Shown piece by piece: positions 50,346 to 63,879 of a stretch of DNA of 64,000 nucleotides. The number at the start of each line of letters is the position of its first letter. Positions within the stretch are counted from its first letter, which is position 1. The position numbers and the translations under genes were made by a program. The notes under the pieces are model-generated. The model was not told the DNA's origin, made no database searches, and saw only the letters and a list, made by a program, of their open reading frames with translations. The stretch comes from a virus: positions 40,737 through 104,736 of the IMG/VR virus record IMGVR_UViG_3300007735_000798; one strand, written 5' to 3'.

Positions 50346-50415
50346 AAACAAAAAAAAGTTCAAAAATCTTAAAAAAATCCCTTGCTTTTTGGCGCATCTG
50401 TGGTATCTTGTATAC

Positions 50416-50706: not shown

Positions 50707-50749
50707 AAAAATCCCTTGACTTTCTCCACATCTCTGATATCCTACTAAC

Positions 50750-50980
50750 ATGAACACATACGAAAAACACATCACTCACAACGGAAGCGAATACTATCTC
50801 TGCACAGAGTATGCGTTCGATCACACCGACACTCTGCAAGTCTCTGACTTTACGCTGACCGATGAGGACGGCGAAGAAATCACGCAAGAGGCTTTCGAGG
50901 CTGACAAGGCTCTCTATGAGCGTGTCTGCGAAATCCTCGCAAACGAGGACGCTGTCTGCTATGGCGGCGCGCCTTGCTAA
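50750..50980 (+). CDS. Early acidic hypothetical protein
   Basis: Leaderless start; D/E-rich. Confidence 0.75.
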   Translation: MNTYEKHITHNGSEYYLCTEYAFDHTDTLQVSDFTLTDEDGEEITQEAFEADKALYERVCEILANEDAVCYGGAPC

Positions 50981-51012
50981 TTCAAACACTCGTTTCAAAT
51001 ACTCGTTTCAAT

Positions 51013-51087
51013 ATGCTAACACACGCTGCCGAAATCCTAACAGCCATTCTCATATTCGTCCTAGGCTTTGCCTTGCTCTGTATATAA
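51013..51087 (+). CDS. 24-aa single-TM peptide
   Basis: MLTHAAEILTAILIFVLGFALLCI; stop lies inside repeat R1. Confidence 0.45.
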   Translation: MLTHAAEILTAILIFVLGFALLCI

Positions 51088-51160
51088 GCCGTTGATAATC
51101 AACAGGTTACGACGGGGCGCCCCGCCGCGCGACGCAAGTCCTTGGTAATCAGCGACTTAC
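51084..51160 (+). repeat. 77-bp double-palindrome element R1
   Basis: ATAAGCCGTTGATAATCAACAGGTTAC + GC core + GCAAGTCCTTGGTAATCAGCGACTTAC. Confidence 0.9.
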
Positions 51161-51279
51161 ACAAACACACATTCAGAAAGCGTGCCAACTCACAAAACTT
51201 TTTTCTATCAACAAAAAAAACTTTCAACAACCGCAAAAAAATCTCTTGCTTTTTCCGTGCGCTGTGCTATTCTATATCC

Positions 51280-51498
51280 ATGTTCAAGATCAGATACCAA
51301 CTCATCCACAATCGTGGCTGCGAAACAGTCACCATCCAAAACCGCTCGGTCAAGCGCGCCATGCGTATGGCACGCACCCAAGCGTGGGATCAATACGCGC
51401 AATCGGGCGCGACTAACTGGGCCGATGTGTGGCTCACCATCACCAACCCCTACGGCAAGGTCGTCTATGCGGACTTTGCTCCGTCATCAGCGATCTGA
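51280..51498 (+). CDS. Early hypothetical protein
   Basis: Leaderless start MFKIRYQL. Confidence 0.7.
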   Translation: MFKIRYQLIHNRGCETVTIQNRSVKRAMRMARTQAWDQYAQSGATNWADVWLTITNPYGKVVYADFAPSSAI

Positions 51499-51540
51499 AA
51501 AATCGCTTGACTTTTCTCTTTCTTCTGCTATCCTTTAATC

Positions 51541-51915
51541 ATGAACAACGAAAACACCACATTCAACTTCAACGGAACCATCTGCAAGCTCGTCATCTCG
51601 GAGGACTTCGATGGTGACTGCACGAAACTTTGGCACGAACTCGTCAGCGTCGAGACTGGTAAGACCATCGCCACCCTCGACTGGTCGCCTTACTCTGTGC
51701 CCTCTGATGCGGAGGTCGAGCAACTTATCAGCCTTGGGGAAGTGATCCTCGGAGAATTCCACTTGCCCTGTGGTTTGCGTTTTGCTAACTCTCACCCGCT
51801 CTCACGCTTCAACTTCGACAGCAAGATGCTCGCCGCTTTTTTTGCTGGTGTTTACGGGGAAACTGTTGGCAAACTTGAACTTGTGTTCAGTGTGCGCCCT
51901 ACCTTGGCCGCATAA
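51541..51915 (+). CDS. Early hypothetical protein
   Basis: 124 aa; leaderless promoter. Confidence 0.75.
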   Translation: MNNENTTFNFNGTICKLVISEDFDGDCTKLWHELVSVETGKTIATLDWSPYSVPSDAEVEQLISLGEVILGEFHLPCGLRFANSHPLSRFNFDSKMLAAFFAGVYGETVGKLELVFSVRPTLAA

Positions 51916-51979
51916 AAAAACTTTCACAATCGCAAAAAAAATCCTTGCGTTTTCTCTCAACCTGTTCTATTCTTTAACC

Positions 51980-52198
51980 ATGAAAGACATCGACACCTAC
52001 ATCACCAACGCCCACTCCGACGATTTCGCCACGGAGGCGGAGGAGCGCGCCACCCTCAACACGTTCGCGGCAGAGCCTGCCGTCGAGCAGGAACCCGAAC
52101 CGCAACCCTACGATGGGTACGAGGGCCATTGGGCGGGGGATGGGTCGGGCATGGACGACCTCGCGGACTGGGGCGAGCAGGAGGGCTGGGACAACTAG
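51980..52198 (+). CDS. Early highly acidic protein
   Basis: MKDIDTY...SDDFATE...; leaderless promoter. Confidence 0.7.
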   Translation: MKDIDTYITNAHSDDFATEAEERATLNTFAAEPAVEQEPEPQPYDGYEGHWAGDGSGMDDLADWGEQEGWDN

Positions 52199-52260
52199 CC
52201 CAAACAATTCAAACGCCTGTTTCAAACGGGCGTTTGTTTTTTGCCCAAATTCCAAGTTGC

Positions 52261-52337
52261 GTAAGTCCTTGATATTCAACCACTTGCATTGGCGCGCGGG
52301 GCGTGCGCGCGTAAGTCCTTGATAATGAACGACTTAC
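52261..52337 (-). repeat. 77-bp element R2 (inverted core)
   Basis: Arms GTAAGTCCTTGA...; core GCGCGCGGGGCGTGCG is the reverse complement of the usual core. Confidence 0.85.
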
Positions 52338-52461
52338 GTGATGGCTTGCGAACCCGCATAAATACTGGCTTCGCGGGTGTCAAGCTTTTTTTGCAAAAAA
52401 AATTTTGCGTAATCGCAAAAAAATCCCTTGCTTTTTTGCAGTCCCGTGCTATTCTTTAAGC

Positions 52462-52647
52462 ATGAAAAAGAAATACTACACCAAAGCGGAAATCGTGGAA
52501 TTCGCCACGAAAAACAAAGCCACTTGCACGCACGCATCGTTGGCTTTCAGTTCGTTCATCTTCACCAACCGCGTTGGTCGCACTTGCAAGGTTGCGTTTG
52601 ATCGCGTGGATCATGGCGTTTGGCAGAAAAAAATCTTGAAAAAATAA
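52462..52647 (+). CDS. Early protein, paralog of 54605..54787
   Basis: MKKKYYT...NKA.CT...V.F.RVD..VW.KKI. Confidence 0.75.
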   Translation: MKKKYYTKAEIVEFATKNKATCTHASLAFSSFIFTNRVGRTCKVAFDRVDHGVWQKKILKK

Positions 52648-52682
52648 CTTGACTTTTCCCGCATCTCTGGTAGATTGTAAGT

Positions 52683-52856
52683 ATGAAAAACGGATACACT
52701 AAAAGCTGGCGCGCTAAAGAGCGCGTCGAAACTCTCGACCTTCCTCTCGCGGAGGACAACGATCACCCTGTTTGGGTGAAGCGTCCTAAAGACGCTTTCG
52801 AGCGTGAACTGGAGCGGTTGAACCGCGAAGAAAAGCGTAACCGCTGGTCACGCTAA
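52683..52856 (+). CDS. Early protein, paralog of 55754..55957
   Basis: 57 aa, MKNGYTKSWR...TLDLPL (below the ORF-track length cutoff). Confidence 0.7.
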   Translation: MKNGYTKSWRAKERVETLDLPLAEDNDHPVWVKRPKDAFERELERLNREEKRNRWSR

Positions 52857-52883
52857 AGCTTGTCAAGCAAAAAAGTGTTCAGC

Positions 52884-52960
52884 GTAAACCACTGAACATC
52901 AAGCGCTTACGACGGCGCGCCCCGCCGCGCGGCGTAACCCGTTGAAAATCAAGCACTTAT
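52884..52960 (+). repeat. 77-bp element R3
   Basis: Same arms and CGCGCCCCGCCGCGC core. Confidence 0.9.
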
Positions 52961-53078
52961 GCAAAGCGCCGTTCAGAAAGCGTGCCAACTTCAGAAATTT
53001 TTTTTCTTCAACAAAAAAACTTTAGAAAATCGAAAAGATTTTCATTGCTTTTTGCGCGTTCTGTGATATGCTGTATGT

Positions 53079-53351
53079 ATGAAAAAAGAAATCACCACAA
53101 TCGAACAAGCAAAGAAACTCTCCGTCTTGGAGTTCATGGATTTGTCCACTCTGGAACGCAAACTTCTGGATGAACTGAAGCGCGTTGAATCGCAGGTTGA
53201 ACTGCTCCAGACTTGGCTGGACAACGCTAACCAGTCGTGCGAAACCTTGCGCAAAGCACGCGACAACTATCGCAGACAGCTTGGCATCTCGTCCGATTGG
53301 GACACGATGGAATCTGTCCGCGACAAATACGATGCCAGACATGGCGGATAA
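53079..53351 (+). CDS. Early coiled-coil protein
   Basis: 90 aa; leaderless promoter. Confidence 0.75.
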   Translation: MKKEITTIEQAKKLSVLEFMDLSTLERKLLDELKRVESQVELLQTWLDNANQSCETLRKARDNYRRQLGISSDWDTMESVRDKYDARHGG

Positions 53352-53391
53352 AATCGCTTGACTCTCACCATCTTTCTGCTATTCTAAAGAC

Positions 53392-53640
53392 ATGAAAAAC
53401 ACCATCACCAAACACGAACTTAACGATCACCTTTGCCACGCTCGCGTTGCTCTGGTTCTTCAGAGCCGCGAACTCTACAAACGCCGCAATGGGTTTTGCG
53501 GAAAATCCTTCCGCCAAACTCTGCGCGACAACATCCGCGCCTTGCGCGTGTTGAGCAATCTCAACACCATCGAAGCGACTCTCTACTCGTCGTTCGCATC
53601 GCCCAAAGTAGGCAAAGCCGAAAAAATTCTCGGCTTGTAA
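53392..53640 (+). CDS. Early protein, paralog of 58400..58639
   Basis: TK.E.N..L..AR.AL...RNGF...R.LS...TI.A.LYS. Confidence 0.75.
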   Translation: MKNTITKHELNDHLCHARVALVLQSRELYKRRNGFCGKSFRQTLRDNIRALRVLSNLNTIEATLYSSFASPKVGKAEKILGL

Positions 53641-53681
53641 AATCGCTTGACTCTCACCATCTTTCTGCTATCATCACTTTT

Positions 53682-53852
53682 ATGAAAAAAGAAAAACTGA
53701 ACCAACACCTCGTCGAAATCTTCCGCGCGATTGATCGGCTCAATCACGCAATCGGCAACGGGAAGATGCCGAAACTCGACAAGGGACAAAAAATCGTCCT
53801 GCGTTCGGCACTCATCACGCTCGACAACATCGCACTAGAGGGACTGCAATAA
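53682..53852 (+). CDS. Early hypothetical protein
   Basis: Promoter duplicated from the one at ~53350 (AATCGCTTGACTCTCACCATCTTTCTGCTA). Confidence 0.65.
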   Translation: MKKEKLNQHLVEIFRAIDRLNHAIGNGKMPKLDKGQKIVLRSALITLDNIALEGLQ

Positions 53853-54082
53853 TGTCACAAAACGAAAACATCATGAAGTCGCTTCACGCTCTCGCAAAGC
53901 ATGAGGTTGCCATGCAAGCGCAGGAGGCGGAAATCGTCGAACTGAAAAATCTTTTGTCTCGCGCCTTGCACACCATCACCATGCACGAGCACAAACTCAA
54001 TCTTTTGTGTGGCGTTTCTACCACGCTTGCGGTAGAGTTGCACAAAGTTAAAAATAACCAAATCACATTCGGAGTAAACTAA
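53852..54082 (+). CDS. Early coiled-coil protein
   Basis: Translationally coupled (TAATG). Confidence 0.65.
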   Translation: MSQNENIMKSLHALAKHEVAMQAQEAEIVELKNLLSRALHTITMHEHKLNLLCGVSTTLAVELHKVKNNQITFGVN

Positions 54083-54083
54083 C

Positions 54084-54248
54084 ATGAAAACACAATTGTT
54101 CTCACCCTTGATGCTGGAAAGCGCGGAAGAAAATCTGCGCAAAGAATACGAAAAAAAACTTGGTCGCTTGCCCCTGTGGTGGTATCCTTGCGCTTTCATT
54201 GCTTTTGCAATCCCAATCGTCACTCTAACTCTAATCATATTCACATGA
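54084..54248 (+). CDS. Small C-terminal TM protein
   Basis: 54 aa, MKTQLFSP...; ATGA overlap with the next gene. Confidence 0.55.
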   Translation: MKTQLFSPLMLESAEENLRKEYEKKLGRLPLWWYPCAFIAFAIPIVTLTLIIFT

Positions 54249-54400
54249 GCAAAATCATCATGACCATCGACACGCGACCGCTCGCGCGCGCGATTGAGCG
54301 CAGTGTTCGCAAGACCACTTGCCGTCCTTCATTCGCCATGCGTGTCAAGAAAAAATTCACGCGCAAGGCAAAGTTTTTTCGCGGTTGGTCTGACGAGTAA
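54245..54400 (+). CDS. Small basic protein
   Basis: MSKIIMTID...KKKFTRKAKF; stop inside R4. Confidence 0.6.
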   Translation: MSKIIMTIDTRPLARAIERSVRKTTCRPSFAMRVKKKFTRKAKFFRGWSDE

Positions 54401-54473
54401 AGCGTTGAATATCAACGACTTACGGCGGCGCGCCCCGCCGCGCGACCTAAGTGCTTGAAAATCAACGACTTAC
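54397..54473 (+). repeat. 77-bp element R4
   Basis: GTAAAGCGTTGAATATCAACGACTTAC-GGCGGCGCGCCCCGCCGCGCGAC-CTAAGTGCTTGAAAATCAACGACTTAC. Confidence 0.92.
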
Positions 54474-54604
54474 GCAAAGCGCCGTTCAAGAAGTGTGCCA
54501 AGTTGCGGAACAAAACGCTCGTTTGAAAAATCATCAACAGAAAAAAGTTACGGAACCGCAAAAAAATCCCTTGCTTTTTCGCAGTCTTGTGGTAGAGTGT
54601 ATAC

Positions 54605-54787
54605 ATGAAAAAGAAATACTACACCACGACAGACATCAATGCCTACGCTCTCCGCAACAAAGCGGTTTGCACATTCGGAGGTTTGAACCTTCGCGTGTTC
54701 AAGGGTTGGACTGCGAAAGGTTCTTACGAGGTGAAATTCCACCGCGTTGACGCTCTCGTGTGGGAGAAAAAAATCGTAAGAAAATAG
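54605..54787 (+). CDS. Early protein, paralog of 52462..52647
   Basis: Shared N- and C-terminal motifs. Confidence 0.75.
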   Translation: MKKKYYTTTDINAYALRNKAVCTFGGLNLRVFKGWTAKGSYEVKFHRVDALVWEKKIVRK

Positions 54788-54822
54788 CTTGACTTTTCCC
54801 GCATCTCTGATATCTTAAAAGC

Positions 54823-55038
54823 ATGAAAAATAAAAACACCACTCCTCAACCGAAAGTCGGACAACTCTGGAGAGTCGCCACTGGCGAACGCAAAGGCGGT
54901 TACACTCTCGTCCGCGTCACCGAAATCATCGGCACTCTGGCTTGTGTTCGCACTCACGAAAACAAACGCGGCCACATCCTGCTGGACTACCTACATCCCG
55001 CCTCGAAAGAGGACATTCAAAACTATCTGAAAAAATAG
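54823..55038 (+). CDS. Early SH3/KOW-like small protein
   Basis: PKVGQLW...VRVTEI pattern; leaderless promoter. Confidence 0.65.
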   Translation: MKNKNTTPQPKVGQLWRVATGERKGGYTLVRVTEIIGTLACVRTHENKRGHILLDYLHPASKEDIQNYLKK

Positions 55039-55073
55039 TTTGACTCTCTCCACATCTCTGATACTCTAAAAGC

Positions 55074-55328
55074 ATGACAACCTACAACGAACAAAAGTGC
55101 TACACGGCAAAGGTGAAAAACCATCTCACGAACAAAACGAAATTTTTCGATGTGTTCGCGCCGTCGATCAGCAAGGCAATCCTGCTCGCTGAAGAACTCG
55201 GCTCCTTGTTCTTCTGCACGGCAAGCGTCGAGTGCATCGCCTGTGGCCTCAATCGCTTGGGCAAAGCTCCTGCCGTCATCACGGACGACATTCCTCCCGC
55301 GCCCACGGAGATGAGTCCAATCATCTAA
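55074..55328 (+). CDS. Early hypothetical protein
   Basis: Leaderless promoter. Confidence 0.7.
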   Translation: MTTYNEQKCYTAKVKNHLTNKTKFFDVFAPSISKAILLAEELGSLFFCTASVECIACGLNRLGKAPAVITDDIPPAPTEMSPII

Positions 55329-55370
55329 AAAATCTCTTGACAAATTCAAATTTTCTGATAGATTAAAAGC

Positions 55371-55541
55371 ATGAAAAATAAAAACACCACATATGGTTCG
55401 CGTGAACACACACGCGAGGAGCAGTGCAACTATCGGCTCGTTCAAGACCCGAACGCTCCGAACTACGATCCCAACTGGGAGGATCCAGACCTTCGTCGGT
55501 TAGCTCGCCGTGAGGCTCGCAACTACGGAGGCGACTGGTAA
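55371..55541 (+). CDS. Early hypothetical protein
   Basis: 56 aa, MKNKNTTYG...; shares its 5' end with 54823. Confidence 0.65.
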   Translation: MKNKNTTYGSREHTREEQCNYRLVQDPNAPNYDPNWEDPDLRRLARREARNYGGDW

Positions 55542-55589
55542 AACAGTCGTTTGAAACACGCGTTTTGTCTTGTCAAAATTACATTCTTT

Positions 55590-55666
55590 GTAAAGTGTTG
55601 AACATCAAGTACTTGCACGGGCGCGCCCCGCCGCGCGACCTAAGTGCTTGAAAATGAACGACTTAT
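55590..55666 (+). repeat. 77-bp element R5
   Basis: Same arms and core. Confidence 0.9.
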
Positions 55667-55753
55667 AAATGTCAAGCAAAAAAATAATAAAAAAAATTGC
55701 ACAATCGCAAAAAAAATTCTTGCTTTTTACGCGTTCTGTGCTATCTTGTATAC

Positions 55754-55957
55754 ATGAACAGAAACGGATACACCAGAAGCTGGCGCGAAGAAGAGCGTCT
55801 GCAAACCCTCGACCTCCCACTCGGCATTGATCCTTGGGATCCTGCCTACCAACGCAACCCAGAGGCTTACGAGCGCGACATCGAACGGATGAACCGCGCC
55901 GAAGGGCGTTACAACCGCTACGGACTCTGCTATCGGGAGCCTAAAAAAAGCTCTTGA
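55754..55957 (+). CDS. Early protein, paralog of 52683..52856
   Basis: NGYTRSWR...TLDLPL...ER..ER.NR.E.R. Confidence 0.75.
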   Translation: MNRNGYTRSWREEERLQTLDLPLGIDPWDPAYQRNPEAYERDIERMNRAEGRYNRYGLCYREPKKSS

Positions 55958-55988
55958 CCCTAACCACAAAACAAACCACAATAACACC

Positions 55989-56204
55989 ATGACGAAAAAA
56001 CAATTCGACGCCATCGCAAAAATCTTGGGCAAGCGTCTCGCTGAAAAAGTAGAAGCTCCCATCGGAGAGTATGAAGTTGTCGAAGTCCTCGCGTTGGACT
56101 TTGCGAAATACTTTGCCGAACAGAATCCGCGTTTCGATGAGGATCGCTTTCTGGAAGCGGTTTACGTTTCAACCCCCAACATTCCTGTTGGATCATATAA
56201 ATAA
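55989..56204 (+). CDS. Early hypothetical protein
   Basis: MTKKQFDAIA...NPRFDEDRFLEA. Confidence 0.75.
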   Translation: MTKKQFDAIAKILGKRLAEKVEAPIGEYEVVEVLALDFAKYFAEQNPRFDEDRFLEAVYVSTPNIPVGSYK

Positions 56205-56298
56205 ATTATGTCAATCTGGGAACCACTCTTTTACCTGTGCATCTTTCCTGCCGCTTGCGGTTTCTTAATCCTCTGGGCAGACTCTAAAAAATAATCTC

Positions 56299-56541
56299 AT
56301 GAAAAAATACATATACACCATCGTGGTTGCTCTGATGAGTAGCCTTCTCACCCTCGTCCTCACTGGCATCGCTGTTTGCGTGTTCATCATCGCGCCGTTC
56401 AACAAAGCGGCTGTTGATCGTGGCTTTGCAAGCTGGGTCGTGACCAACACGGCAACTGGCGCGACCAAATTCGCTTGGAACGAACCCGCGTCAGTCGGTG
56501 AAGATTTCTTCGCGCAAATCGAAAAGCCTCTCGACAAATGA
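56299..56541 (+). CDS. Small membrane protein
   Basis: Long N-terminal TM segment. Confidence 0.65.
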   Translation: MKKYIYTIVVALMSSLLTLVLTGIAVCVFIIAPFNKAAVDRGFASWVVTNTATGATKFAWNEPASVGEDFFAQIEKPLDK

Positions 56542-56735
56542 TCACGCCCAACATCCAAAAAGCACTTGAGTCAAACGGAGTGCGGTTCTTTGCAAAAGAC
56601 TTTCTCATGGAAGGTATGCGGAAAGACTGCGTTGACGCTGTGCATGACGCGCATCTTGTCTATACGCTACTGAAAGAGCGCATGGAAAAAATGCTTGGCA
56701 CGGAAAGCAAAAACGAATACGCTGGAGAAGTATGA
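56538..56735 (+). CDS. Early hypothetical protein
   Basis: ATGA-coupled to the previous gene. Confidence 0.65.
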   Translation: MITPNIQKALESNGVRFFAKDFLMEGMRKDCVDAVHDAHLVYTLLKERMEKMLGTESKNEYAGEV

Positions 56736-56866
56736 TAAAAATAATCAAACGCCTGTTCGGAATAAATCAAACGCCTGTTTCACTGCTCGCCTTGAGCCTG
56801 TGGCACTACAACACTTCCACATGGCTAGAGCGCGCCATCTGCAACGGCACGATTGACGACTACATC

Positions 56867-56943
56867 GTAAAGCGTTAAGAATCAACGACTTACGGCGGCG
56901 CGCCCCCGCGCGCATCGTAACTCCTTGAAAATGAACGACTTAT
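56867..56943 (+). repeat. 77-bp element R6
   Basis: Same arms and core. Confidence 0.9.
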
Positions 56944-57062
56944 GAATAGGTGCAAATACTATCATACTAAGGAAAGAATGTCAAGCAAAAAAGCATAAAA
57001 AAATTTTCAAAAAAAATAAAAAAATCCCTTGCATTTTTTCAGATGTGTGGTAGTATGTATAC

Positions 57063-57256
57063 ATGAGATAAAGATAAGGACATAAACCAACCCACAGAGA
57101 GCCTCGTGCCTGCAAGTTGGTTGTCCCACATCGGCACAATTTTTGATTAAGAAAAGACATGAAAGTGTCGGGGTTCATTCTCAAGAAGGGTTGATCGCCA
57201 GAAAAGAGAGAGTGACGAAAGCGTTGGATCGTAATGACTAGGCCTCCTTAATCAAA
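57063..57256 (+). ncRNA. Candidate structured small RNA
   Basis: Full early promoter but the ORF is only ATG AGA TAA; stems GGACA..AACCAAC/GTTGGTTGTCC and TTGATTAAG/CTTAATCAA. Confidence 0.5.
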
Positions 57257-57298
57257 CTTTTTTATTGACTTTTTTCTGCGTTCGTATAAACTTTAACC

Positions 57299-57529
57299 AT
57301 GCTAAGTAAAACACCACAAGTGGGAGACAAGATCATGTATCGGTTCTCCCAAGGCAGAACCAAACACCCTGCAACCATCATCGCCATCGAGGGCGAACAC
57401 TGCATCTTCACGCTCGATGGGGACTGCGACGAGATAAGCGGCGTCCGTGGCACGAAGTGGCCCATGTGGCACGGACTGCTCTACGACTACGACGAGACGC
57501 TTGTCAAGAAAAAAAGAAGGTGGCGATAA
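57299..57529 (+). CDS. Early SH3/Tudor-like small protein
   Basis: PQVGDKIMY...PATIIAI; stop inside R7. Confidence 0.7.
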   Translation: MLSKTPQVGDKIMYRFSQGRTKHPATIIAIEGEHCIFTLDGDCDEISGVRGTKWPMWHGLLYDYDETLVKKKRRWR

Positions 57530-57602
57530 GCCACTGAACATCAACGACTTACGGGGCTGCGCCCCGCCGTCCGTCGTAAGTGCTTGATACTCAACGGTTT
57601 AT
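57526..57602 (+). repeat. 77-bp element R7
   Basis: Same arms; slightly diverged core. Confidence 0.88.
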
Positions 57603-57805
57603 GCATTTATGAAAAAATACAAAATCGTCATAGTAAATGAATAAATAATTACCAATTACTGATTACCATATCTTAATTCTAACTATTTGACCAAAAGCTA
57701 TTTCACAATTTTACCGTGAACTTGTCAAGAATAAAAATGCAAAAATAAAAAATAATTTTTAGAAAAATCTCTTGCGTTTTTGTATGTCTGTGCTATTCTG
57801 TATGC

Positions 57806-58003
57806 ATGACAGAAAAAGAAACCACCAAGTGCCCCAAGTGCGGGGGGAAAGCCACGCAAACCTACGAGCCACCCTATCAGGAATACGCTGGAGCCAGCGT
57901 TCAGGGCGGCTACTACTACGTTGAGTGCCCGTGCGGTCACGAGGGCACTCAGGAGGCCAGCCTCGACGACTACAACTGGCAAGAGAATACGAGGGGCTGG
58001 TAA
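57806..58003 (+). CDS. Early zinc-ribbon protein
   Basis: CPKCGG...CPCG; stop inside R8. Confidence 0.75.
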   Translation: MTEKETTKCPKCGGKATQTYEPPYQEYAGASVQGGYYYVECPCGHEGTQEASLDDYNWQENTRGW

Positions 58004-58076
58004 GCCCCTCATTCTCAACAACTTACGGCGGCACGCCCCGCCGCGCGACCTAAGTGCTTGAAAATGAACGACTTAC
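58000..58076 (+). repeat. 77-bp element R8
   Basis: Same arms and core. Confidence 0.9.
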
Positions 58077-58208
58077 ATAAAACCACTTTCAGAAAGTGTG
58101 CCAACCTTGGGGCCTGGTCGCACTTTTGCGTAAAGTAGCACTTTACGAAATAGTGACGAGCCGAAAAAAATCCGTTGCATTTTCGCGCCGCTGTGGTAGA
58201 GTGTATGC

Positions 58209-58361
58209 ATGACAGAGAAAGAAAAACAAATCCAAGACATCACCGCAAAAATCGAACAAGTCGCAGAGGATTTGATCGACCCTATGCTGGACGATCAAAC
58301 GACTGTTTTGCTCAACCACTTGAGCAAGCTCCGCAAAAAACTTGCGGCACTGCAAAAATAA
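58209..58361 (+). CDS. Early small helical protein
   Basis: 50 aa, MTEKEKQIQ...; leaderless promoter. Confidence 0.6.
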   Translation: MTEKEKQIQDITAKIEQVAEDLIDPMLDDQTTVLLNHLSKLRKKLAALQK

Positions 58362-58399
58362 TCCTTGCAACCAAACGCAAAATCAGAGAAAATAAAATC

Positions 58400-58639
58400 A
58401 TGAAAGTCACCAAAATTGAAATGAATGAAGCCCTCATCCAAGCTCGCATTGCCTTGTCGAAAGACATCCGCGATTTCTTGAAATATCGCAATGGGTTTCT
58501 GGCTGAAACTTACCGCAGGAACATCCGCGAAAAAATCGCGGCCTATCGTCTCCTCTCCAGCATCGACACAATCGACGCTCAACTCTACTCGTTCGACGCT
58601 CGCACTCGCGCAAGGGTGAAAAAAGCCCTTGCCAAGTAA
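58400..58639 (+). CDS. Early protein, paralog of 53392..53640
   Basis: Shared motifs. Confidence 0.7.
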   Translation: MKVTKIEMNEALIQARIALSKDIRDFLKYRNGFLAETYRRNIREKIAAYRLLSSIDTIDAQLYSFDARTRARVKKALAK

Positions 58640-58664
58640 GTCAAATTCTGCGAAAATCACCACC

Positions 58665-59339
58665 ATGAAATTACTCGCCACCAACACCAAACTCGAAAAG
58701 GGCGCATCCTTTGGATGGCGCACACTCGGACTCTCACTCTCTCCCGCTGGAAAATCTGGCAAGCAATTCTGTCCGCATCGCTCGGCAGGTTGTGAAGCCG
58801 CTTGCCTTGACACTTCGGGCATGGGAATTTTTTCTAATGTTCAAGATGCGCGCCTTGCCAAGTCGCGTTTCTTCATCGACAAGCGCAACGATTTTCTCGC
58901 GCAGTTGAACCGCGAAATGCACAACGCGGAAAAAATGTCCGTGCGCACAAGCGTGCCCGTTGCCGTGCGTCTCAATGTCTTGTCTGACCTTCCGTGGCAC
59001 AAGCTGATCGACATGGCGCGCTTTCCATCAATCCAGTTTTACGACTACACGCCGAACATGGAACGCATGATGCAATTCCTTCGCGGTGAACTTCCGAAAA
59101 ATTATCACCTGACATTCTCGCGCAAGGAGGACAATCAGCATCGCGTTCACGCTGTCATCGCCGCTGGCGGTAATGTTGCGGTTGCGTTCAACAAACTTCC
59201 CGACACCTATCTCGGCAAGCCTGTGATCGACGGAGACAAAAGCGATCTGCGCTTTCTCGACGCGCAGGGCGTGATCGTCGGACTCAAAGCAAAAGGCAAG
59301 GGGAAGAAAGATACCTCTGGCTTCGTGGTGCAAATCTGA
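58665..59339 (+). CDS. Gp88-like phage protein (Cys-cluster enzyme)
   Basis: LSLSPA...CP..S.GC.AACL, RLNVLSD, FYDYT, NYHLTFS, DGD.SDLRFLD. Confidence 0.75.
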   Translation: MKLLATNTKLEKGASFGWRTLGLSLSPAGKSGKQFCPHRSAGCEAACLDTSGMGIFSNVQDARLAKSRFFIDKRNDFLAQLNREMHNAEKMSVRTSVPVAVRLNVLSDLPWHKLIDMARFPSIQFYDYTPNMERMMQFLRGELPKNYHLTFSRKEDNQHRVHAVIAAGGNVAVAFNKLPDTYLGKPVIDGDKSDLRFLDAQGVIVGLKAKGKGKKDTSGFVVQI

Positions 59340-59428
59340 ATATAATGGGCACTTATGGAAATAATTTCTTTGCTCGTTGTCATTCTCTGCGCTTTTGCAA
59401 TCAATCATAACTCAAAAAAATAAAAACT

Positions 59429-59587
59429 ATGACATCTAATCTAATCGCACGAAAAAACTTGTTCAGCTTGTCGCAAAAATTTTTCAGCTTGGCCCTATGG
59501 TCGGAGCGCGCAGGCATCACGCCTCTGCAAAAACTTTCTTTCGCCATCTGGAAAAAATTGCTTGACACACGCGACAAACTGCGGTGA
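59429..59587 (+). CDS. Small basic protein
   Basis: 52 aa; ends 1 nt before R9. Confidence 0.5.
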   Translation: MTSNLIARKNLFSLSQKFFSLALWSERAGITPLQKLSFAIWKKLLDTRDKLR

Positions 59588-59588
59588 C

Positions 59589-59665
59589 GTAAAGCGTTGA
59601 TAATCAACGACTTACGGGCGCGCGCCCCGCCGCGCGGCGTAAGTGCCTGGAAATCAACGACTTAT
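59589..59665 (+). repeat. 77-bp element R9
   Basis: Same arms and core. Confidence 0.9.
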
Positions 59666-59783
59666 GCAGAACCACATTCAAGAACCATGCCAACTTGTCA
59701 AACTTTTTTTCGTCAACAAAAATACTTTCTAAAAATGCAAAAAAATCCGTTGCATTCTCGCGCGGCTGTGGTATAGTTACATC

Positions 59784-59918
59784 ATGCAAGCAAGCTCCAT
59801 CATCAACGACGACTTCACCGCAACCATCCAGAGCGACGAGTTCGCAACGGAATTCGAGGCATGGCTCGACGAGCAGGAAAAAAATTATTGGCGCGAAATT
59901 GAAGCGGAGGGAAATTAA
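59784..59918 (+). CDS. Early acidic protein related to 51980..52198
   Basis: 44 aa; IQSDEFATE vs AHSDDFATE; leaderless promoter. Confidence 0.6.
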   Translation: MQASSIINDDFTATIQSDEFATEFEAWLDEQEKNYWREIEAEGN

Positions 59919-59960
59919 CCGCTTGACACTCGCGCACGAATCACCGATACTTTAGACCTT

Positions 59961-60245
59961 ATGCAAACACCACAAAACCCATTGGAGGGATATGTCTCCA
60001 TCTGCTGCGGAGTGCAGCACGACATCAACGCAGAATACACCATCGACAACGAGGATGTCGTCGGCGGTTGCTGCTCCTGCAAACGCTACGCGGAATTCGT
60101 TCCTGCGGAGGACTTCGTTCGCCGCAAGCGCGGCGTGATCAATCGCCTTGCGTTTTCGGGAGTTAATCAATCCCAAGCCTCTGCGCTCGCTTCGCTCAAC
60201 TCGTTCGTGCCAGACGACACGGACTACCACATGGACTTGTGGTAA
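59961..60245 (+). CDS. Early Cys-rich protein
   Basis: SICCG...GCCSCK; leaderless promoter. Confidence 0.7.
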   Translation: MQTPQNPLEGYVSICCGVQHDINAEYTIDNEDVVGGCCSCKRYAEFVPAEDFVRRKRGVINRLAFSGVNQSQASALASLNSFVPDDTDYHMDLW

Positions 60246-60288
60246 ACCGCTTGACACTCACACGCTCACTCTCTAAACTCTCAACTCT

Positions 60289-60783
60289 ATGGAACAAGCT
60301 AAAATCATAATCAGCACATACGGCAACGGCATCGCTGTCGGCCTCAACGGAACACGCGAACAGATCACGCGCACATTCAACCGATTCTTTAATTGGGGTG
60401 CTGCTGGTGCTGGCGCAAACTTCATGCGCTCAAATCAAGACTGCGAGATGCAGCATGGCGAATTGGGTGACTCCTACTTGCACGAAATCGGGGAAAACTT
60501 TTCCTACTTCCTCTCGACTGACGAGAACATGGTTCGTGCTCTGACTGCCGAGACGATTACAAAGTGGCAGGACTCTCCGATCAGCGAGCAATATAAGTCT
60601 CGCCCTCGTCACCATAAGAAACCAAACGGCACAAAGTTCGTGCGTGATGCGGTTGCCGCTGCGACTGCGGAATATAATTCTTTCGCACGCGAAAACTTCA
60701 TGCTGTTCGGCAAAACTCCCACACACATCTACCAGCAACTCGATGGCGGCGCGCCGTCTTGGATCAGCGAAACGGAGGACTAA
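60289..60783 (+). CDS. Early hypothetical protein
   Basis: 164 aa; promoter upstream. Confidence 0.75.
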   Translation: MEQAKIIISTYGNGIAVGLNGTREQITRTFNRFFNWGAAGAGANFMRSNQDCEMQHGELGDSYLHEIGENFSYFLSTDENMVRALTAETITKWQDSPISEQYKSRPRHHKKPNGTKFVRDAVAAATAEYNSFARENFMLFGKTPTHIYQQLDGGAPSWISETED

Positions 60784-60786
60784 TCT

Positions 60787-61041
60787 ATGTCACACATAGT
60801 TATAGAAATCAAAGGCGAGCTTTGGAGTTTCATTTGTGCAAATCCTAATCTGGGCAGCTATGACATACTCGCCAAGTATAGCAATAAAGGAAAAACAATC
60901 GTGAATAAAAACTTCGGAGAAAAAAATTCTATTGAACTTATAGGAGTCACTCACCTAGAAGTTGCTGCAATTAAGTTTGCGGAAAGCATATACTATGACA
61001 CACATCCGCGCCCAAACCTTGTCAATATAAAAAAATACTAA
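60787..61041 (+). CDS. Hypothetical protein (AT-richer than neighbours)
   Basis: SD GGAGG; ends 1 nt before R10. Confidence 0.6.
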   Translation: MSHIVIEIKGELWSFICANPNLGSYDILAKYSNKGKTIVNKNFGEKNSIELIGVTHLEVAAIKFAESIYYDTHPRPNLVNIKKY

Positions 61042-61042
61042 T

Positions 61043-61119
61043 GTAAAACGCTAATAATCAACGACTTACAGCGGCGCGCCCAGCCGCTCGGCGTAATTCC
61101 TTGAATATCAGCATTTTAC
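61043..61119 (+). repeat. 77-bp element R10
   Basis: Same arms and core, somewhat diverged. Confidence 0.85.
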
Positions 61120-61277
61120 AAAAAATCAACTCCTACTCTAGAATCTGATAAATAATTCTGATAATCTATAATATATTCCCCTATTTAACTATTTAGCCTT
61201 TCGCTATTTCACTATTATACAAAAATATTTTTACTATTTAGCTTGATTTTTTTGAAATTTGTTGTAGATTTATAGAT

Positions 61278-61350
61278 GCGGGGCAATGTTCCAAGGCTGG
61301 CGAGAAGGTCTCCAAAACCATCTGGCAGAGTTCGATTCTCTGGCCTCGTG
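61278..61350 (+). tRNA. tRNA-Trp(CCA)
   Basis: Acceptor GCGGGGC/GCCTCGT, anticodon loop CTCCAAA, T arm CAGAG-TTCGATT-CTCTG; weak D arm; no encoded CCA. Confidence 0.75.
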
Positions 61351-61353
61351 CGC

Positions 61354-61425
61354 GGGATGGTAGCTCAAAGGTAGAGCAGCGCCCTTTTAAGGCGTTGGTT
61401 GTGAGTTCGATCCTCACCCATCCCA
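61354..61425 (+). tRNA. tRNA-Lys(TTT)
   Basis: GGGATGG/CCATCCC acceptor, GCTC/GAGC D arm, GCGCC-CTTTTAA-GGCGT, GTGAG-TTCGATC-CTCAC. Confidence 0.92.
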
Positions 61426-61470
61426 TAAAAAATCCATTGACAAATCAATTTTTTCTGATATATTAGGTGT

Positions 61471-61599
61471 ATGAAAAAGAAAACCACCGCTGAAAAAACT
61501 CTCACCGAGATTGCCAAGATCGCCCTGTTTGAGGCTAACGCCAAAACTGGCCTAAAAAAAATCCAAAAAATCTTGGAAAATTTTCAAAAAACCCATTGA
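61471..61599 (+). CDS. Small Lys-rich protein
   Basis: 42 aa after a TTGACA-N16-TATATT promoter. Confidence 0.55.
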   Translation: MKKKTTAEKTLTEIAKIALFEANAKTGLKKIQKILENFQKTH

Positions 61600-61630
61600 C
61601 ATTTCAATCAAATCCTTGTATTCTATAAAA

Positions 61631-61894
61631 ATGAAAGCACTACTAAAGAAAATCAAACTGGCAATCGCAGACTCCAAGTTCGGACAACTCTCCAATCCTG
61701 TGTATAGGTTGAAGTATCGTCCTTACACGGATCACGGAAACAAGGAGGTCTATGACTACCTCGTTTCGCGGCCCTTCGATGGGTTCGTGAATGGCTTCAC
61801 CGCCTACTGCTTCGGCAAGGGCGTTCGTAGGTTCCGCTTTGACGAGATCGTTGATCGTGAAGTGGTTCACATCTTTGGAAAGTCAGTTGCATAA
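61631..61894 (+). CDS. Stand-alone WYL-like domain protein
   Basis: YRLKY...VSRP...FTAYCFGKGVRRFRFDEI resembles the WYL C-terminal motif (AxC..R..R.FR.DRI). Confidence 0.55.
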   Translation: MKALLKKIKLAIADSKFGQLSNPVYRLKYRPYTDHGNKEVYDYLVSRPFDGFVNGFTAYCFGKGVRRFRFDEIVDREVVHIFGKSVA

Positions 61895-61909
61895 CTTTTG
61901 CTCAATTAA

Positions 61910-62623
61910 ATATCTGCGAGTTCATAGCCAGAGGGAACTGGTGTCCACGCGCAGAGAATAAACTCCCACAATTTTTAGTTCTTTTACAATTTGCAAAACA
62001 AGCCCGAATAAAGTATCGGAATAAAAGATGGACAGAAACAAGGGTCTGTCGTCATACATAAAACCCTCCGAGGCTGAAATCATTTTTTCCGAAAGGAAGA
62101 GAATATCCAATGCTTCTATAGAACCGATGTGCGCTCGGATGCTGCTTGGAGAATAAGGCGCACAAAAAATTTTACCAACCCATTCCGAAAACCCCAATGA
62201 TTGTTGGGGAACCATGCTACGGCATAGGGGTGGGTGGTAAAAAACTCTCCCAAGCTCTGGCGGACATTTCTCCGTTCAACTTGTGAGCTAGTCGCCGCAA
62301 GGCGATTCGATGTCGGTGCTGCCAGAAGGCACGGAGTCAACGGCAGGGAGTTCTGGCCTCCCTGTCACACTTTCTTTGAAAAAAATTTGATGGTCTACTA
62401 ACCATAGTCTAGAAAGAGAGGTTAGTAGCGTAAGCCGACGCCGTTATAGTTTAGGGCCATCTACACATCCGATTGGGAGTAATGAACCAATAGTCAGAAC
62501 CCACTGATGAAGAGAAGCAGATCATGCCTGTGATAAGGGGGATGGTCACCGTGACCCGCGTTCGGCACGCGTTAGCTGTATCGGCCCGATTCCGCAAGGA
62601 AAAAGACGGCAAGAGAAAGCAGC
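61910..62623 (+). ncRNA. Large structured non-coding RNA (GOLLD/ROOL-class size, family unassigned)
   Basis: ~710 nt with no credible ORF; many hairpins with GNRA/UNCG loops and a long-range stem. Confidence 0.7.
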
Positions 62624-62700
62624 CGAACTTCTTAATTATCAAGCACTTACAACGGCGCGCCCCGCCGCGCCACTTAAGTCGTTCATTATCAACACTTTAC
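62624..62700 (+). repeat. 77-bp element R11
   Basis: Arms ...TATCAAGCACTTAC and TTAAGTCGTTCATTATCAACACTTTAC around the GC core. Confidence 0.85.
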
Positions 62701-62875
62701 ATTTTCAACATGGAAAATCTTGACAGGCGCATAGAAAACGTGTAATAGTTCAAGCCAAATTTGGACAACAGCCCACAGAAGGTGTATTTGTAACAAAAAT
62801 CATCAGCGGCTATCAACAAAAATATTTTCTACAAAACCAGTTGACAATAAAATCAAATAGGGCTATCTTTAGAGC

Positions 62876-63601
62876 ATGATCACCACACAACTGCCTCTCC
62901 CTATGCGTTGCTCGTCTGACGCTTTGGTGCAACCCGAATTGGAATTGAAGCCTACGCGCAATCCGCAATTCATGCGCGTCGAAAAATTCTTTGACTCGCT
63001 CGACCGCTCGCGTGTTAGCGAGTATGTTGACTACTGGACTTCTATCGCGCCCAAGGGAACGCAAGACTCAATGTTGCGTTGGCTGTTCGCGTTCATGTCT
63101 GTGCATACAAGCTGGAAGTCTAATGTCAACGGCTACAATGCAATCAAGACTCTCGACTGGTGGCACGATCAGCAAGTTCTTCTCAACAAGCTCAAGCATA
63201 GTGGCGTTGGCTTGCACAACAACCGCACAAAGTTTGTGTGGGAGTTCCAGCAAAAGTTCTGGAAAGACATTCCGAAATACTCGCATGAACCCGCGCATTG
63301 GCGCAACCATCGTGATCAACTCGTCAAGGATGTTCTTGGTCTTGGCAAGGCCAAAGTCTCGTTCTCCTTGGAGATGATGCATCCCGACAAGTGCGAGGTT
63401 GTCTGCATGGATACTCATATGTTCCAAGCCTACGGACTCGACCAAACCAAAGACGAAAAACATTACGATAACATTGAGGCTCATTGGATCACCATGTGCC
63501 GCGCATACGATGTTCCTTGCTACATCGCTCGCTGTTTGTATTGGGATGCGATCCAAGACAAGCAGGACTCGCGCTACTGGTCGTATGTTTTTGAAGAATA
63601 A
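62876..63601 (+). CDS. HhH-GPD superfamily DNA glycosylase/AP lyase
   Basis: GVGLHNNR, HhH LGLGKAK, MDTH catalytic Asp; no Fe-S Cys cluster. Confidence 0.75.
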   Translation: MITTQLPLPMRCSSDALVQPELELKPTRNPQFMRVEKFFDSLDRSRVSEYVDYWTSIAPKGTQDSMLRWLFAFMSVHTSWKSNVNGYNAIKTLDWWHDQQVLLNKLKHSGVGLHNNRTKFVWEFQQKFWKDIPKYSHEPAHWRNHRDQLVKDVLGLGKAKVSFSLEMMHPDKCEVVCMDTHMFQAYGLDQTKDEKHYDNIEAHWITMCRAYDVPCYIARCLYWDAIQDKQDSRYWSYVFEE

Positions 63602-63639
63602 TCCTTGCAATCCATCTCAAAAAACCATACATTAACAAT

Positions 63640-63858: not shown

Positions 63859-63879
63859 TATAGAAAGGAGGGGAATATA

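Follow-up and report, generated by a model that had tools for sequence, protein, structure and literature searches.

Fixed-length 77-bp double palindromes between early gene groups of an uncultured freshwater-type phage

Eleven double palindromes of 77 bp separate groups of small early genes in an uncultured freshwater-type phage, of which a stretch of 64,000 nt (the window) was analysed. These elements conserve sequence rather than structure and are tentatively explained as DNA-level protein-binding linkers between early transcription units, the modules being reshuffled by homologous recombination. Under this explanation, the elements would be the conserved hearts of intergenic linker modules, which are the best-conserved repeated DNA of the early-gene island where they lie, and would act as double-stranded DNA. 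A GC-rich spacer would hold two inverted half-sites a fixed number of bp apart, each backed by a weaker outer mirror copy, and the half-sites would jointly bind a sequence-specific DNA-bending protein, with host IHF as the best candidate. The folded protein-DNA complex may then mark, as a transcriptional or topological boundary, the border between successive early transcription units, as it would sit just past the last stop codon of a gene group, upstream of the next leaderless sigma70 promoter and, in most copies of the window's clade, 11-12 bp from a backward sigma54-type (or sigma70-type) box. Ordinary homologous recombination in and around the modules would delete, insert or swap whole gene groups, in a manner similar to that of the promoter-early stem-loops (PeSLs) of T4-type phages.

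Copies, geometry and conservation of the element

A previous reading of the sequence alone had listed eleven copies of 27+23+27 bp, and all of them are recovered with this build and these starts. They lie on the + strand at 51084-51160 (R1, with a C-rich core on the sense strand), 52261-52337 (R2), 52884-52960 (R3), 54397-54473 (R4, nearest to the family consensus), 55590-55666 (R5), 56867-56943 (R6), 57526-57602 (R7), 58000-58076 (R8), 59589-59665 (R9), 61043-61119 (R10), and 62624-62700 (R11, whose left arm is the most divergent). About one element per window is expected by chance. Indeed, the skeleton of the inner repeats (TCAA-N4-TTAC-N23-GTAA-N4-TTGA, 16 bases, up to three mismatches allowed) finds 11 matches in the 64 kb, every one on the + strand, whereas shuffled sequence yields 0.95 on average and never more than 3. 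A single-arm pattern recovers 21 of the 22 arms in the window, and its five matches outside the island are compatible with chance (shuffles: mean 2.4, maximum 7).

Related IMG/VR phage contigs carry at least 100 distinct copies. The 70 distinct copies aligned from the window and its relatives fill 77 columns with zero gaps, in agreement with the earlier statement that length is invariant while sequence drifts. In three relatives rated 100% complete by CheckV, the elements occur only inside one island of about 17 kb at 45-50% GC, within genomes of about 30% GC, the remaining ~150 kb being devoid of them. No genuine copy was found by scanning 185,579 species genomes, the sole matches being contigs of 1-2 kb that resemble mis-binned phage fragments, and an Rfam search of the element gave no match.

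The half-sites read TCAA-SS-ACTTAC and its mirror (S being C or G). The arms are palindromic as described before, but imperfectly so: the inner halves (positions 16-27 and 50-62) are, with positions 33-43 of the core, the best-conserved parts, whereas the outer halves are degenerate. The core 15-mer CGCGCCCCGCCGCGC is exact in only five of the eleven window copies; the others, read by eye, hold near-matches, and the core of R2 is inverted, as in 7/70 copies of the family. The spacer between the inner half-sites measures 23 bp in 84/84 matches of the window's close clade and 21 bp in 21/26 matches of a distant clade, and these two lengths also dominate a separate IMG/VR scan (46 and 22 matches, respectively). 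In the distant clade, the core sequence differs and none of the 34 island ORFs of the window has a tblastn match in the stretches compared, yet the arm sequence is still conserved. The constraint on length proposed from the window is thus real and looks geometric.

Promoters, stop codons and terminators of the early-gene island

The island spans 50000-64000 (+ strand) at 44-50% GC, versus about 23-38% in the rest of the window, and continues past the contig end. Relatives show the same GC step; in the complete ones, 17-34 kb separate the island from the contig ends, which may not be the physical genome ends. About 30 sigma70-type promoters are predicted in it, each with an ATG at the predicted +1, and every gene, or group of genes, is served by a promoter of its own; one element is present per 2-4 genes. 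R1 is followed by a class A leaderless promoter at 51246-51282 (+ strand), with a TTGCTT -35, a TGn-extended -10 and the ATG at +1. Equivalent + strand promoters, one per element from R2 to R11, start at 52428, 53045, 54571, 55720, 57029, 57772, 58175, 59750, 61243, and 62841. A leaderless sigma70 promoter is located within 300 bp downstream of 56 of 66 family copies, and in the distant clade it can be as near as 5-15 bp after the element.

Upstream ORFs had been described as stopping inside the left arm or 1 nt before it. This is borne out for R4 (a TAA), R7 and R8 (all at positions 2-4), for R6 (positions 10-12), and for R9 and R10 (ORF end 1 nt before), while the stop assigned to R1 depends on a doubtful overlapping ORF. 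After R10, a promoter starts tRNA-Trp and tRNA-Lys. Across the family, when the longest open frame nearby is considered, its stop begins 3 nt before the element (10 copies), at position 2 (8) or at position 10 (3) in 21/70 copies. Despite the many promoters, only one good canonical + strand terminator is present in the 14 kb. A canonical terminator, with hairpin and T-run, precedes R2 (52210-52246), and R2 is therefore expected to be little transcribed in the sense direction. With R2 included, 20/70 copies have a T-run at most 45 nt upstream; a U-tract after the element was sought on both strands and not found.

On the minus strand, TGGCAC-N5-(T/C)TG(C/A) stands at a fixed offset of 11-12 bp from the element in 43/70 well-conserved copies (about 60%). 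In the window, such sigma54-type boxes follow R1 (51172-51188, TGGCAC-N5-CTGA, 11 nt from the element end and aimed into it), R3 (52972-52988), R4 (54485-54501, TGGCAC-N5-TTGA), R8 (58088-58104) and R9 (59677-59693, TGGCAT-N5-TTGA), the coordinates after R4 and R8 being derived from the flank with the same 11-nt offset. In three further copies of the family, this position is taken by a sigma70-type promoter of identical direction. The one aimed into R6 (56956-56984, minus strand) reads TTGACA-17-TAGTAT with a TG, an arrangement that recurs in relatives.

Exchange of gene groups and competing explanations

It had been suggested that gene groups might change at the elements, and this is what relatives display: groups are present, absent or swapped between them, and homology often stops at or in an element. 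For instance, gene groups come in the order 7, 8 in the window versus 8, 7 in the relatives L010 and L018. When pairs share only the upstream group, identity exceeds background over the left arm and the core, and has dropped to it by positions 51-62; these two parts accompany the upstream gene group. Among 45 such pairs, homology is lost at core positions 40-50 in 13, before the element in 9 and after it in 12, while in the reverse comparison the breakpoint falls after the element in 39/55. Breakpoints therefore do not gather at one position but are scattered from the flank through the element into the downstream promoter region, which is what homologous exchange between repeated modules would be expected to produce.

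The inverted arms, the asymmetric spacer of fixed length and the nearly uniform orientation do resemble a recombination site. Together with the homology lost in the core, the left arm and core carried along by the upstream group and the swapped groups, they would suit dedicated cassette-shuffling sites (integron- or lox-like), in which an unrecognised recombinase would occupy the arms, crossover would take place in the asymmetric core and groups would move as circles. We regard such sites as improbable. The breakpoints before and after the element do not fit them, the genes own their promoters, and the invariant core is merely the longest shared identity. To our knowledge, the crossover regions of lox, FRT, dif and res sites are all far shorter than the central region of 21-23 bp. 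No recombinase had been seen in the window; likewise, Phage_integrase and Resolvase (tyrosine recombinases and resolvases/invertases) have no match in its contig or in the three complete relatives, nor has Y1_Tnp in these relatives, whereas control genomes match. With no recombinase found, gene groups that have promoters of their own, scattered breakpoints and sequence conserved instead of structure, the elements do not support the integron-like site-specific system put forward in the sequence-only reading. A role as enhancer or control site appears about as improbable: the backward sigma54-type box would be served by an activator bound at the arms, alone or together with IHF, and RNA starting at the right edge of the element would run antisense into the preceding early genes as a timed shut-off. 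The fixed offset of the box, the full TGGCAC-N5-TTGC found in several relatives and the sigma70-type promoters in the equivalent place favour it. Enhancer-binding proteins typically use paired dyad sites, and FlrC and FleQ are reported to act from enhancers that lie downstream of the transcription start. However, about 40% of the close-clade copies and the inspected distant-clade copies keep the arms without the box, the window boxes have TTGA or CTGA instead of TTGC at -12, and the element, at +1 to +77, is very close for looping. A search of the phage for sigma54 or an enhancer-binding ATPase found neither, the sole AAA+ match being RuvB-like.

An RNA-level role is unlikely, but less so than the two preceding ones. 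Once transcribed, the 77 nt would form an imperfect hairpin which, as a whole or through its GC-rich apex, would end, attenuate or stabilise early mRNAs as a U-tract-less terminator, a REP-like block to 3'-exonucleases or an RNase III site as in the early regions of T7 and SP82. Predicted folds are very stable (-20 to -33 kcal/mol; z from -1.0 to -4.7, and below -3 in five of seven folded strands) and, with the C-rich core kept in orientation relative to transcription in 60/70 copies, would also suit this role. The elements lie where gene groups end (3'), with stop codons inside or beside the left arm, and this location points the same way, as does the single canonical terminator; in PeSLs, the GC-rich stem-loops do act as terminators (PMC2839356). 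The pairing tests argue otherwise. In the long-hairpin and three-hairpin models, pairing and covariation are no greater than in shuffles (the observed pairing is reached by 175/500 and 339/500 of them, respectively), no compensatory base change was found in either, and departures from the consensus disrupt pairs as often as shuffles predict. Moreover, positions 20/58 and 21/57, central in the inner repeat, are systematically non-complementary in 31/40 sequence clusters, a level reached in 0/5000 shuffles, which is evidence against selection for a hairpin. Neither a base-exact length nor arms outlasting the core are expected of a hairpin, and the lack of a U-tract, the placement of R2 after a canonical terminator, the T-runs upstream of 19 other copies and the empty Rfam search also count against an RNA-level role. 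The least probable explanation is a functionless selfish or neutral repeat, MITE- or REP-like, duplicated within the island and homogenised by gene conversion. The copies are star-like around the consensus with little orthology signal, a weak result since the underlying table has several misaligned columns, and one relative contains gene-free clusters of elements at 170-bp spacing as well as solitary arms. Such a repeat is hardly compatible with arms that persist in a clade with another core and no detected island genes of the window, with the exact spacer and the specific non-complementarity that are maintained, or with the restriction to the island and the lack of genuine copies in species genomes; no transposase was found either.

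Candidate binding protein and comparison with known systems

The match of the arms to WATCAANNNNTTR, the IHF consensus (PMC9452768), reported before is real and concentrated in the elements, which contain 15 of the 16 full matches in the island. Nine of the eleven window elements have at least one (R5 and R8 have none), as do 63/70 copies of the family, and the half-site H2 matches in 53/70. Host IHF is the best candidate binder because the best-conserved half-site fully matches the consensus. The phage encodes no HU/IHF-family gene, for which a search had been advised, so any IHF would come from the host; the nearest cultured phages share only 23-41% identity, in two proteins. In effect, the match amounts to one inherited motif set against one of many known consensus sequences, and at A22, C23 and C27 conservation goes further than that consensus. 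A fixed, clade-specific spacer (21 versus 23 bp) would be easier to reconcile with a single dedicated bridging protein than with two independent IHF dimers. By plain reasoning, the elements are unlikely to serve as decoys, because a genome with 11-13 sites would scarcely deplete a host protein that is abundant.

Several known systems share features with the linkers. Integron attC sites conserve structure, not sequence, and vary in length from 57 to 141 bp. Like them, the elements form imperfect palindromes on the 3' side of gene groups, most copies sharing one orientation, with variable cassette content between relatives and conserved unpaired positions in the would-be stem. However, they conserve sequence and length, and there is no integrase, attI or Pc here, each group having its own promoter and breakpoints not falling at a single position. 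In E. coli, BIME-1 or RIB-RIP elements are REP pairs around an IHF site (PMC3333891, PMC2817692). Both systems consist of composite extragenic palindromes at the 3' ends of transcription units, combining GC-rich palindromes with IHF-consensus DNA, with an architectural or unknown function. The layout is reversed here, as two IHF-like palindromes surround one GC-rich core, and the copies are phage-borne, restricted to a 17-kb island, length-exact and without a REP-associated Y1 transposase. The first-step-transfer DNA of phage T5 carries repeat regions at the injection stop signal region (Davison, bioRxiv 10.1101/866236). As here, conserved repeats or palindromes with boxes for host factors (DnaA, possibly IHF and FIS) occupy the pre-early/early region of a large phage and are better conserved than the adjoining genes. 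T5 repeats are heterogeneous and clustered in a few untranslated regions, whereas a single element type runs throughout the gene array here, and no relationship of this phage to T5 was found.

PeSLs, known from the T4-type phages RB49, phi1, PST and nt-1 (Arbiol et al. 2010, PMC2839356; Comeau et al. 2014, PMC4122927), are likewise conserved intergenic modules among small early genes of unknown function. In both systems, a GC-rich palindrome is joined to a strong sigma70 promoter with an A/T-rich upstream tract, whatever is inserted, deleted or replaced between relatives is delimited by the modules, and no dedicated recombinase is known or required. A PeSL is a short G(n)-loop-C(n) hairpin present once per gene, whereas the element described here is a 77-bp double-arm structure of exact length with sequence-conserved arms, found once per 2-4 genes, with no evidence of selection for pairing. 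It also differs by its IHF-consensus half-sites, by the frequent backward sigma54-type box and by the leaderless genes that follow. A tape-measure (minor tail) domain is present in a 2964-aa protein of the phage, which is therefore probably long-tailed and not a T4-type myovirus.

The element family and its GC-rich island

Eleven copies of a 77-bp double palindrome (R1 to R11, 27 + 23 + 27 bp each) lie on the + strand between window positions 51084 and 62700, each exactly where an earlier, sequence-only reading had placed it. The skeleton of their inner repeats, with at most three mismatches, is matched 11 times in the window, against a mean of 0.95 and a maximum of 3 in shuffled sequence. That reading had proposed scanning relatives with an HMM, and a model built from the eleven copies was used to search IMG/VR. 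The family was thereby found in dozens of related contigs, adjoining a homologue of the same 444-aa virion protein gene in the same relative orientation. Of 107 distinct copies obtained, none of the 66 with the highest scores departs from 77 bp in length, and 70 align over 77 columns without a gap, 13 of these columns being invariant. Conservation is highest in the inner half-site H2 (positions 16-27, TCAA-SS-ACTTAC), in its mirror H3 (50-62) and at core positions 33-43 (CGCGCCCCGCC); each outer half-site is a mirror copy in degenerate form. In 60 of the 70 aligned copies, the core has its C-rich strand on the sense side, and in 7, including R2, it is inverted.

A scan of 185,579 species genomes returned only five contigs with the element, 1-2 kb long and located in metagenome-assembled genomes of unrelated phyla. 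These island fragments (L110-L114), from bins labelled Alphaproteobacteria, Verrucomicrobia and Thiobacillus, are probably phage DNA mis-binned by its GC content and hence provide no host evidence. The element is not a host repeat, since its matches in species genomes look like such fragments. The elements are real and old within the phage group.

The window constitutes the last 64 kb of a 104.7-kb virus contig with a completeness rating of 69%. GC content is 24-33% in the first 40 kb of the contig and 23-38% over window positions 1-50,000, which carry structural genes on the minus strand. These encode the large terminase, the 444-aa virion protein and a 2964-aa protein (9551-18445) with a tape-measure domain (PhageMin_Tail; minor tail) matched at the N-terminus only, at residues 116-307. 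From about position 50,000 to the contig end, GC climbs to 44-50%. Three relatives rated 100% complete (166-178 kb) include 11-13 elements each, all inside one stretch of about 15 kb that sits in an island of about 17 kb with 45-50% GC and DNA of about 30% GC on both sides; the window stops within its own island. The step between island (44-50%) and genome (about 30%) is seen again in all relatives examined. Chimeric assembly was considered as its source and excluded because the island has flanks of about 30% GC on both sides in the complete relatives; moreover, the same step next to the same 444-aa gene recurs in many contigs. One idea is that the high GC reflects escape from silencing of AT-rich foreign DNA, or a match to host codon usage.

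In the island, small ORFs are arrayed on the + strand, and 20 of them gave no Pfam match above threshold. A 236-aa ORF (58629-59339) strongly matches GP88, a family of unknown function, and a 241-aa ORF (62876-63601) has a weak, sub-threshold match to Ogg-HhH in the Pfam scan. The array also contains genes for tRNA-Trp (61278-61351) and tRNA-Lys (61354-61425), the only hits of an Rfam search of the island. A stretch at 61906-62578, without convincing ORF or Rfam match, is the best-conserved island DNA among relatives (78-93% identity). Megablast of the island against cultured phages gave no match, and protein searches reached distant relatives only, namely a cyanophage virion protein (35-41% identity) and terminases of Bacillus and Clostridium phages (23-25%).

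Conserved sequence and spacing of the elements

Single-strand folding of the elements gives long, imperfect hairpins with energies of -20 to -33 kcal/mol. Two pairing models, one long hairpin and three local hairpins, were tried on the 70-sequence alignment. With either model, the proportion of paired cells and all covariation measures equal the shuffle means, the observed pairing being reached by 175 and 339 of 500 shuffles, respectively. Stem positions that vary, for example 9/69 and 11/67, do so independently of each other. Indeed, the strongest coupling in the element opposes pairing: at positions 20/58, 55 of 69 copies have C/C or G/G and just 2-5 have complementary bases, depending on whether wobble pairs are included, and positions 21/57 are likewise non-complementary. 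When the copies are collapsed into 40 clusters by sequence, both position pairs are non-complementary in 31, a number reached by none of 5000 shuffles. In every element, one inner half-site is thus of the CG type and the other of the GC type, with both orders occurring. The elements look palindromic because a conserved motif is used in both orientations, and pairing at the centre of the inner repeats appears to be avoided. The GC-rich apex of the predicted hairpins may still have a role at the RNA level.

The sequence-only reading had deduced a geometric constraint from the invariant length, and the family comparison supports it. In the clade of the window, the spacer between H2 and H3 measures 23 bp in 84 of 84 matches, whereas in a distant clade, with a 444-aa protein about 60-75% identical, 21 of 26 matches have a 21-bp spacer and 4 have one of 24 bp. 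Both strands were scanned for these counts and duplicates were removed incompletely, so that some elements were perhaps counted twice, which leaves the length distribution unaffected. In a wider IMG/VR scan, GC-rich cores again fell into two main classes, with 46 matches at 23 bp and 22 at 21 bp. The cores of the two clades share little more than a high GC content and a stretch of C or G, whereas the arms of the distant clade are nearly identical in sequence to those of the window. A tblastn search with 34 island ORFs of the window gave no match in the distant-clade loci, which cover up to 10 kb of their arrays. The combination of a spacer constant in length but free in sequence with arms retained even where no gene of the window can be detected is characteristic of a protein site on double-stranded DNA. 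Most economically, the elements would therefore be protein-binding linkers.

Host IHF would be the best candidate among named binders, on the strength of one consensus match. The IHF matches announced for the arms are borne out, as H2 fully matches the consensus WATCAANNNNTTR in 53 of 70 copies, at least one match occurs in 63 of 70, and 15 of the 16 matches in the window island fall within the 847 bp covered by elements. Positions A22, C23 and C27 are conserved over and above the IHF consensus. The search for a phage gene of the HU/IHF family, suggested along with the IHF reading, found none. The difference of two bases between the clades is somewhat easier to reconcile with a single bridging protein than with two IHF dimers acting independently. 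By eye, the arms showed no convincing fit to the consensus sequences of DnaA, FNR, CRP, Fis, dif or the integron core site.

Promoters and gene boundaries around the elements

About 30 ORFs in the 14 kb of the island each possess a predicted sigma70-type promoter of their own with an ATG (50382-63642). The design includes an A-tract, a -35 box TTGCTT or TTGACT and an extended -10 box TGnTAnnnT. The ATG lies about 7 nt past the -10 box and coincides with the predicted +1, so that the early mRNAs of the island would be leaderless. Two classes are distinguished: class A (-35 TTGCTT or TTGCAT, with GTATACATG further on) follows every window element, whereas class B (TTGACT, with AAAAGCATG further on) heads genes deeper within a group. 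A leaderless sigma70 promoter stands within 300 bp downstream in 56 of 66 copies, mostly at 66-107 bp; in the distant clade, the -35 box may begin just 5-15 bp past the element. Distances bunch at 67, 77, 84, 97 and 107 bp and are uninformative on helical phasing because the clusters probably reflect common descent of the intergenic regions. The tRNA pair has a promoter of the same design (61243-61425 together with the two genes), from which the RNA is predicted to begin no more than about 2 nt from the 5' end of tRNA-Trp.

On the upstream side, the stop codon of the longest nearby open frame begins 3 nt before the element, or at its position 2 or 10, in 21 of 70 copies. The sequence-only reading had described ORF stops in or just before the left arm, and this stands for R4 and R6-R10, R1 not being among them. 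The elements could form a hairpin, but the T-run expected of rho-independent terminators does not follow on either strand, and the terminator scan lists none of them on the + strand. A canonical terminator with hairpin and T-run is located just upstream of R2, and a T-run occurs within 45 nt upstream in 20 of 70 copies. Palindromes of the type AAACG...CGTTT recur at 50979-51008, 52206-52246 and 55536-55565, and the one at 52210-52236, with its T-run, is the sole strong canonical + strand terminator of the island. Another palindrome, CTTGTCAAG, followed by an A-run, lies beside elements on either side (52855-52875, 56973-56993, 57496-57516, 61014-61034 and others) and reads as a TTGACA -35 box on the minus strand.

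The elements may also be control sites for promoters that run backward. In 43 of 70 copies, a conserved box begins 11 nt beyond the right edge and reads TGGCAC-N5-(T/C)TG(C/A) on the minus strand, the layout of a sigma54-type -24/-12 sequence pointing into the element, so that its RNA would start at the element edge. Several relatives display the complete sigma54 consensus TGGCAC-N5-TTGC, in which GG and GC are ten bases apart; the five boxes of the window (after R1, R3, R4, R8 and R9) have TTGA or CTGA at -12. Three more copies, including R6, carry a minus-strand TTGACA-17-TAGTAT promoter at the box position instead. No gene for sigma54 or for an enhancer-binding ATPase activator is encoded by the phage. 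The sole Sigma54_activat match in relatives, of the AAA+ type, was rejected as a RuvB-like protein.

Many late genes on the minus strand lack a Shine-Dalgarno sequence and have TGTAAT...TATAAT about 5-8 nt upstream of the start codon, as at 28249, 40142, 43006, 48225 and 49942 before structural genes. This suggests a late promoter motif and late mRNAs that are leaderless too.

Exchange of gene groups and comparison with known systems

The early regions of large phages show the fastest turnover of host-takeover and anti-defence genes. The arrays of the relatives are broadly collinear, yet whole gene groups come and go: groups 6 and 7 of the window are absent from two related loci (L019 and L023), and the order 7, 8 is reversed to 8, 7 in two others (L010 and L018). 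Homology between relatives often extends up to an element. Matching of single elements between genomes for chimeric arms was too weak at this divergence, and only statistics pooled over all copy pairs taken from different loci were used. When only the upstream group is common, the left arms are 0.89-0.95 and the left cores 0.91 identical, compared with a background of 0.65-0.78, and identity drops to this background by positions 51-62. Pairs with only the downstream gene in common show an excess that starts near position 40 and lies mostly past the element. Change-points for 45 upstream-shared pairs fall 13 times at core positions 40-50, 9 times before the element and 12 times after it, and 39 of 55 fall after it in the reverse comparison. 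Core positions 40-50 hold only a local excess, at a resolution limited there by invariant columns. The sequence-only reading had asked whether gene order or content changes exactly at the elements; content does change at the linker modules, but the change-points are spread and not confined to one position. The element core is one hot spot rather than a single crossover position, and its invariance merely makes it the longest run of shared identity.

The sequence-only reading had also offered the elements as recombination sites of an integron-like shuffling system, which the comparison does not support. Integron attC sites are conserved in folded structure and variable in length, whereas the elements are gapless at 77 bp and show no covariation above shuffles; integron cassettes are promoterless under a common promoter, whereas about 30 promoter-plus-ATG units occur here in 14 kb; and integron boundaries fall at a fixed position of the site, whereas the change-points here are scattered over flank, element and downstream module. 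PF00589, the family of IntI-type tyrosine recombinases, has no match in the contig or in the three complete relatives, while 14 of 14 control genomes match. Resolvases, also matched in the control genomes, are found neither in the contig nor in the complete relatives, and no Y1 transposase was found in the complete relatives, again with matches in the controls. A dedicated recombinase acting on the elements is therefore unlikely. Its fullest version, in which a lytic-type phage would use an unrecognised recombinase on the arms, with crossover in the asymmetric GC core, to exchange self-expressed early-gene groups (host-takeover or anti-defence) as circles, an integron analogue without integrase of a known family, is given very little credence here. 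BIME-1 (RIB/RIP) elements have the opposite layout, two inverted REP palindromes around a central IHF site, and are bacterial, spreading in the chromosome with a Y1 (RAYT) transposase, whereas no Y1_Tnp is found in the complete relatives here and no genuine copies were found in bacterial genomes, only apparently mis-binned phage contigs of 1-2 kb.

The breakpoint pattern is instead that of the PeSLs, the promoter-early stem-loop cassettes of T4-type phages, in which crossovers occur at various points within the repeated module (PMC2839356). The likeness extends to a repeated intergenic GC-rich palindrome with a strong sigma70 early promoter, an A/T-rich upstream tract and arrays of small ORFans, and to insertions, deletions and replacements bounded by modules among relatives. 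The PeSL stem-loop also terminates transcription, and mini-circles are formed there; for the elements, covariation gives no support for a stem. As protein-binding linkers, the elements would delimit early transcription units and double as recombination joints.

To our knowledge, the organisation and reshuffling of an early region are known in detail solely for the PeSLs. This phage clade represents a second, more elaborate solution, with a linker of base-exact geometry that persists in compared stretches where no island gene of the window is detectable and that carries matches to the consensus of bacterial host factors, IHF and, frequently, a sigma54-type box. Should IHF or some other protein bind it, the element would be a compact, naturally occurring boundary part suited to very strong promoters, and a marker by which the early-gene islands of uncultured phages could be found; should it be the target of a dedicated enzyme, it would belong to a new gene-cassette system.

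Diverged paralogues exist among the small early genes, as 52583-52856 resembles 54723-54839 and 55762-55912 at 74-81% DNA identity, and the array therefore also grows by duplication. A gene-free cluster was observed at the island start of one relative (L035:12190-12660, sense strand of the array). It holds three elements spaced by 170 bp, of which the middle one has its core inverted, together with two arms that stand alone and tandem repeats of about 32 bp, of two kinds.
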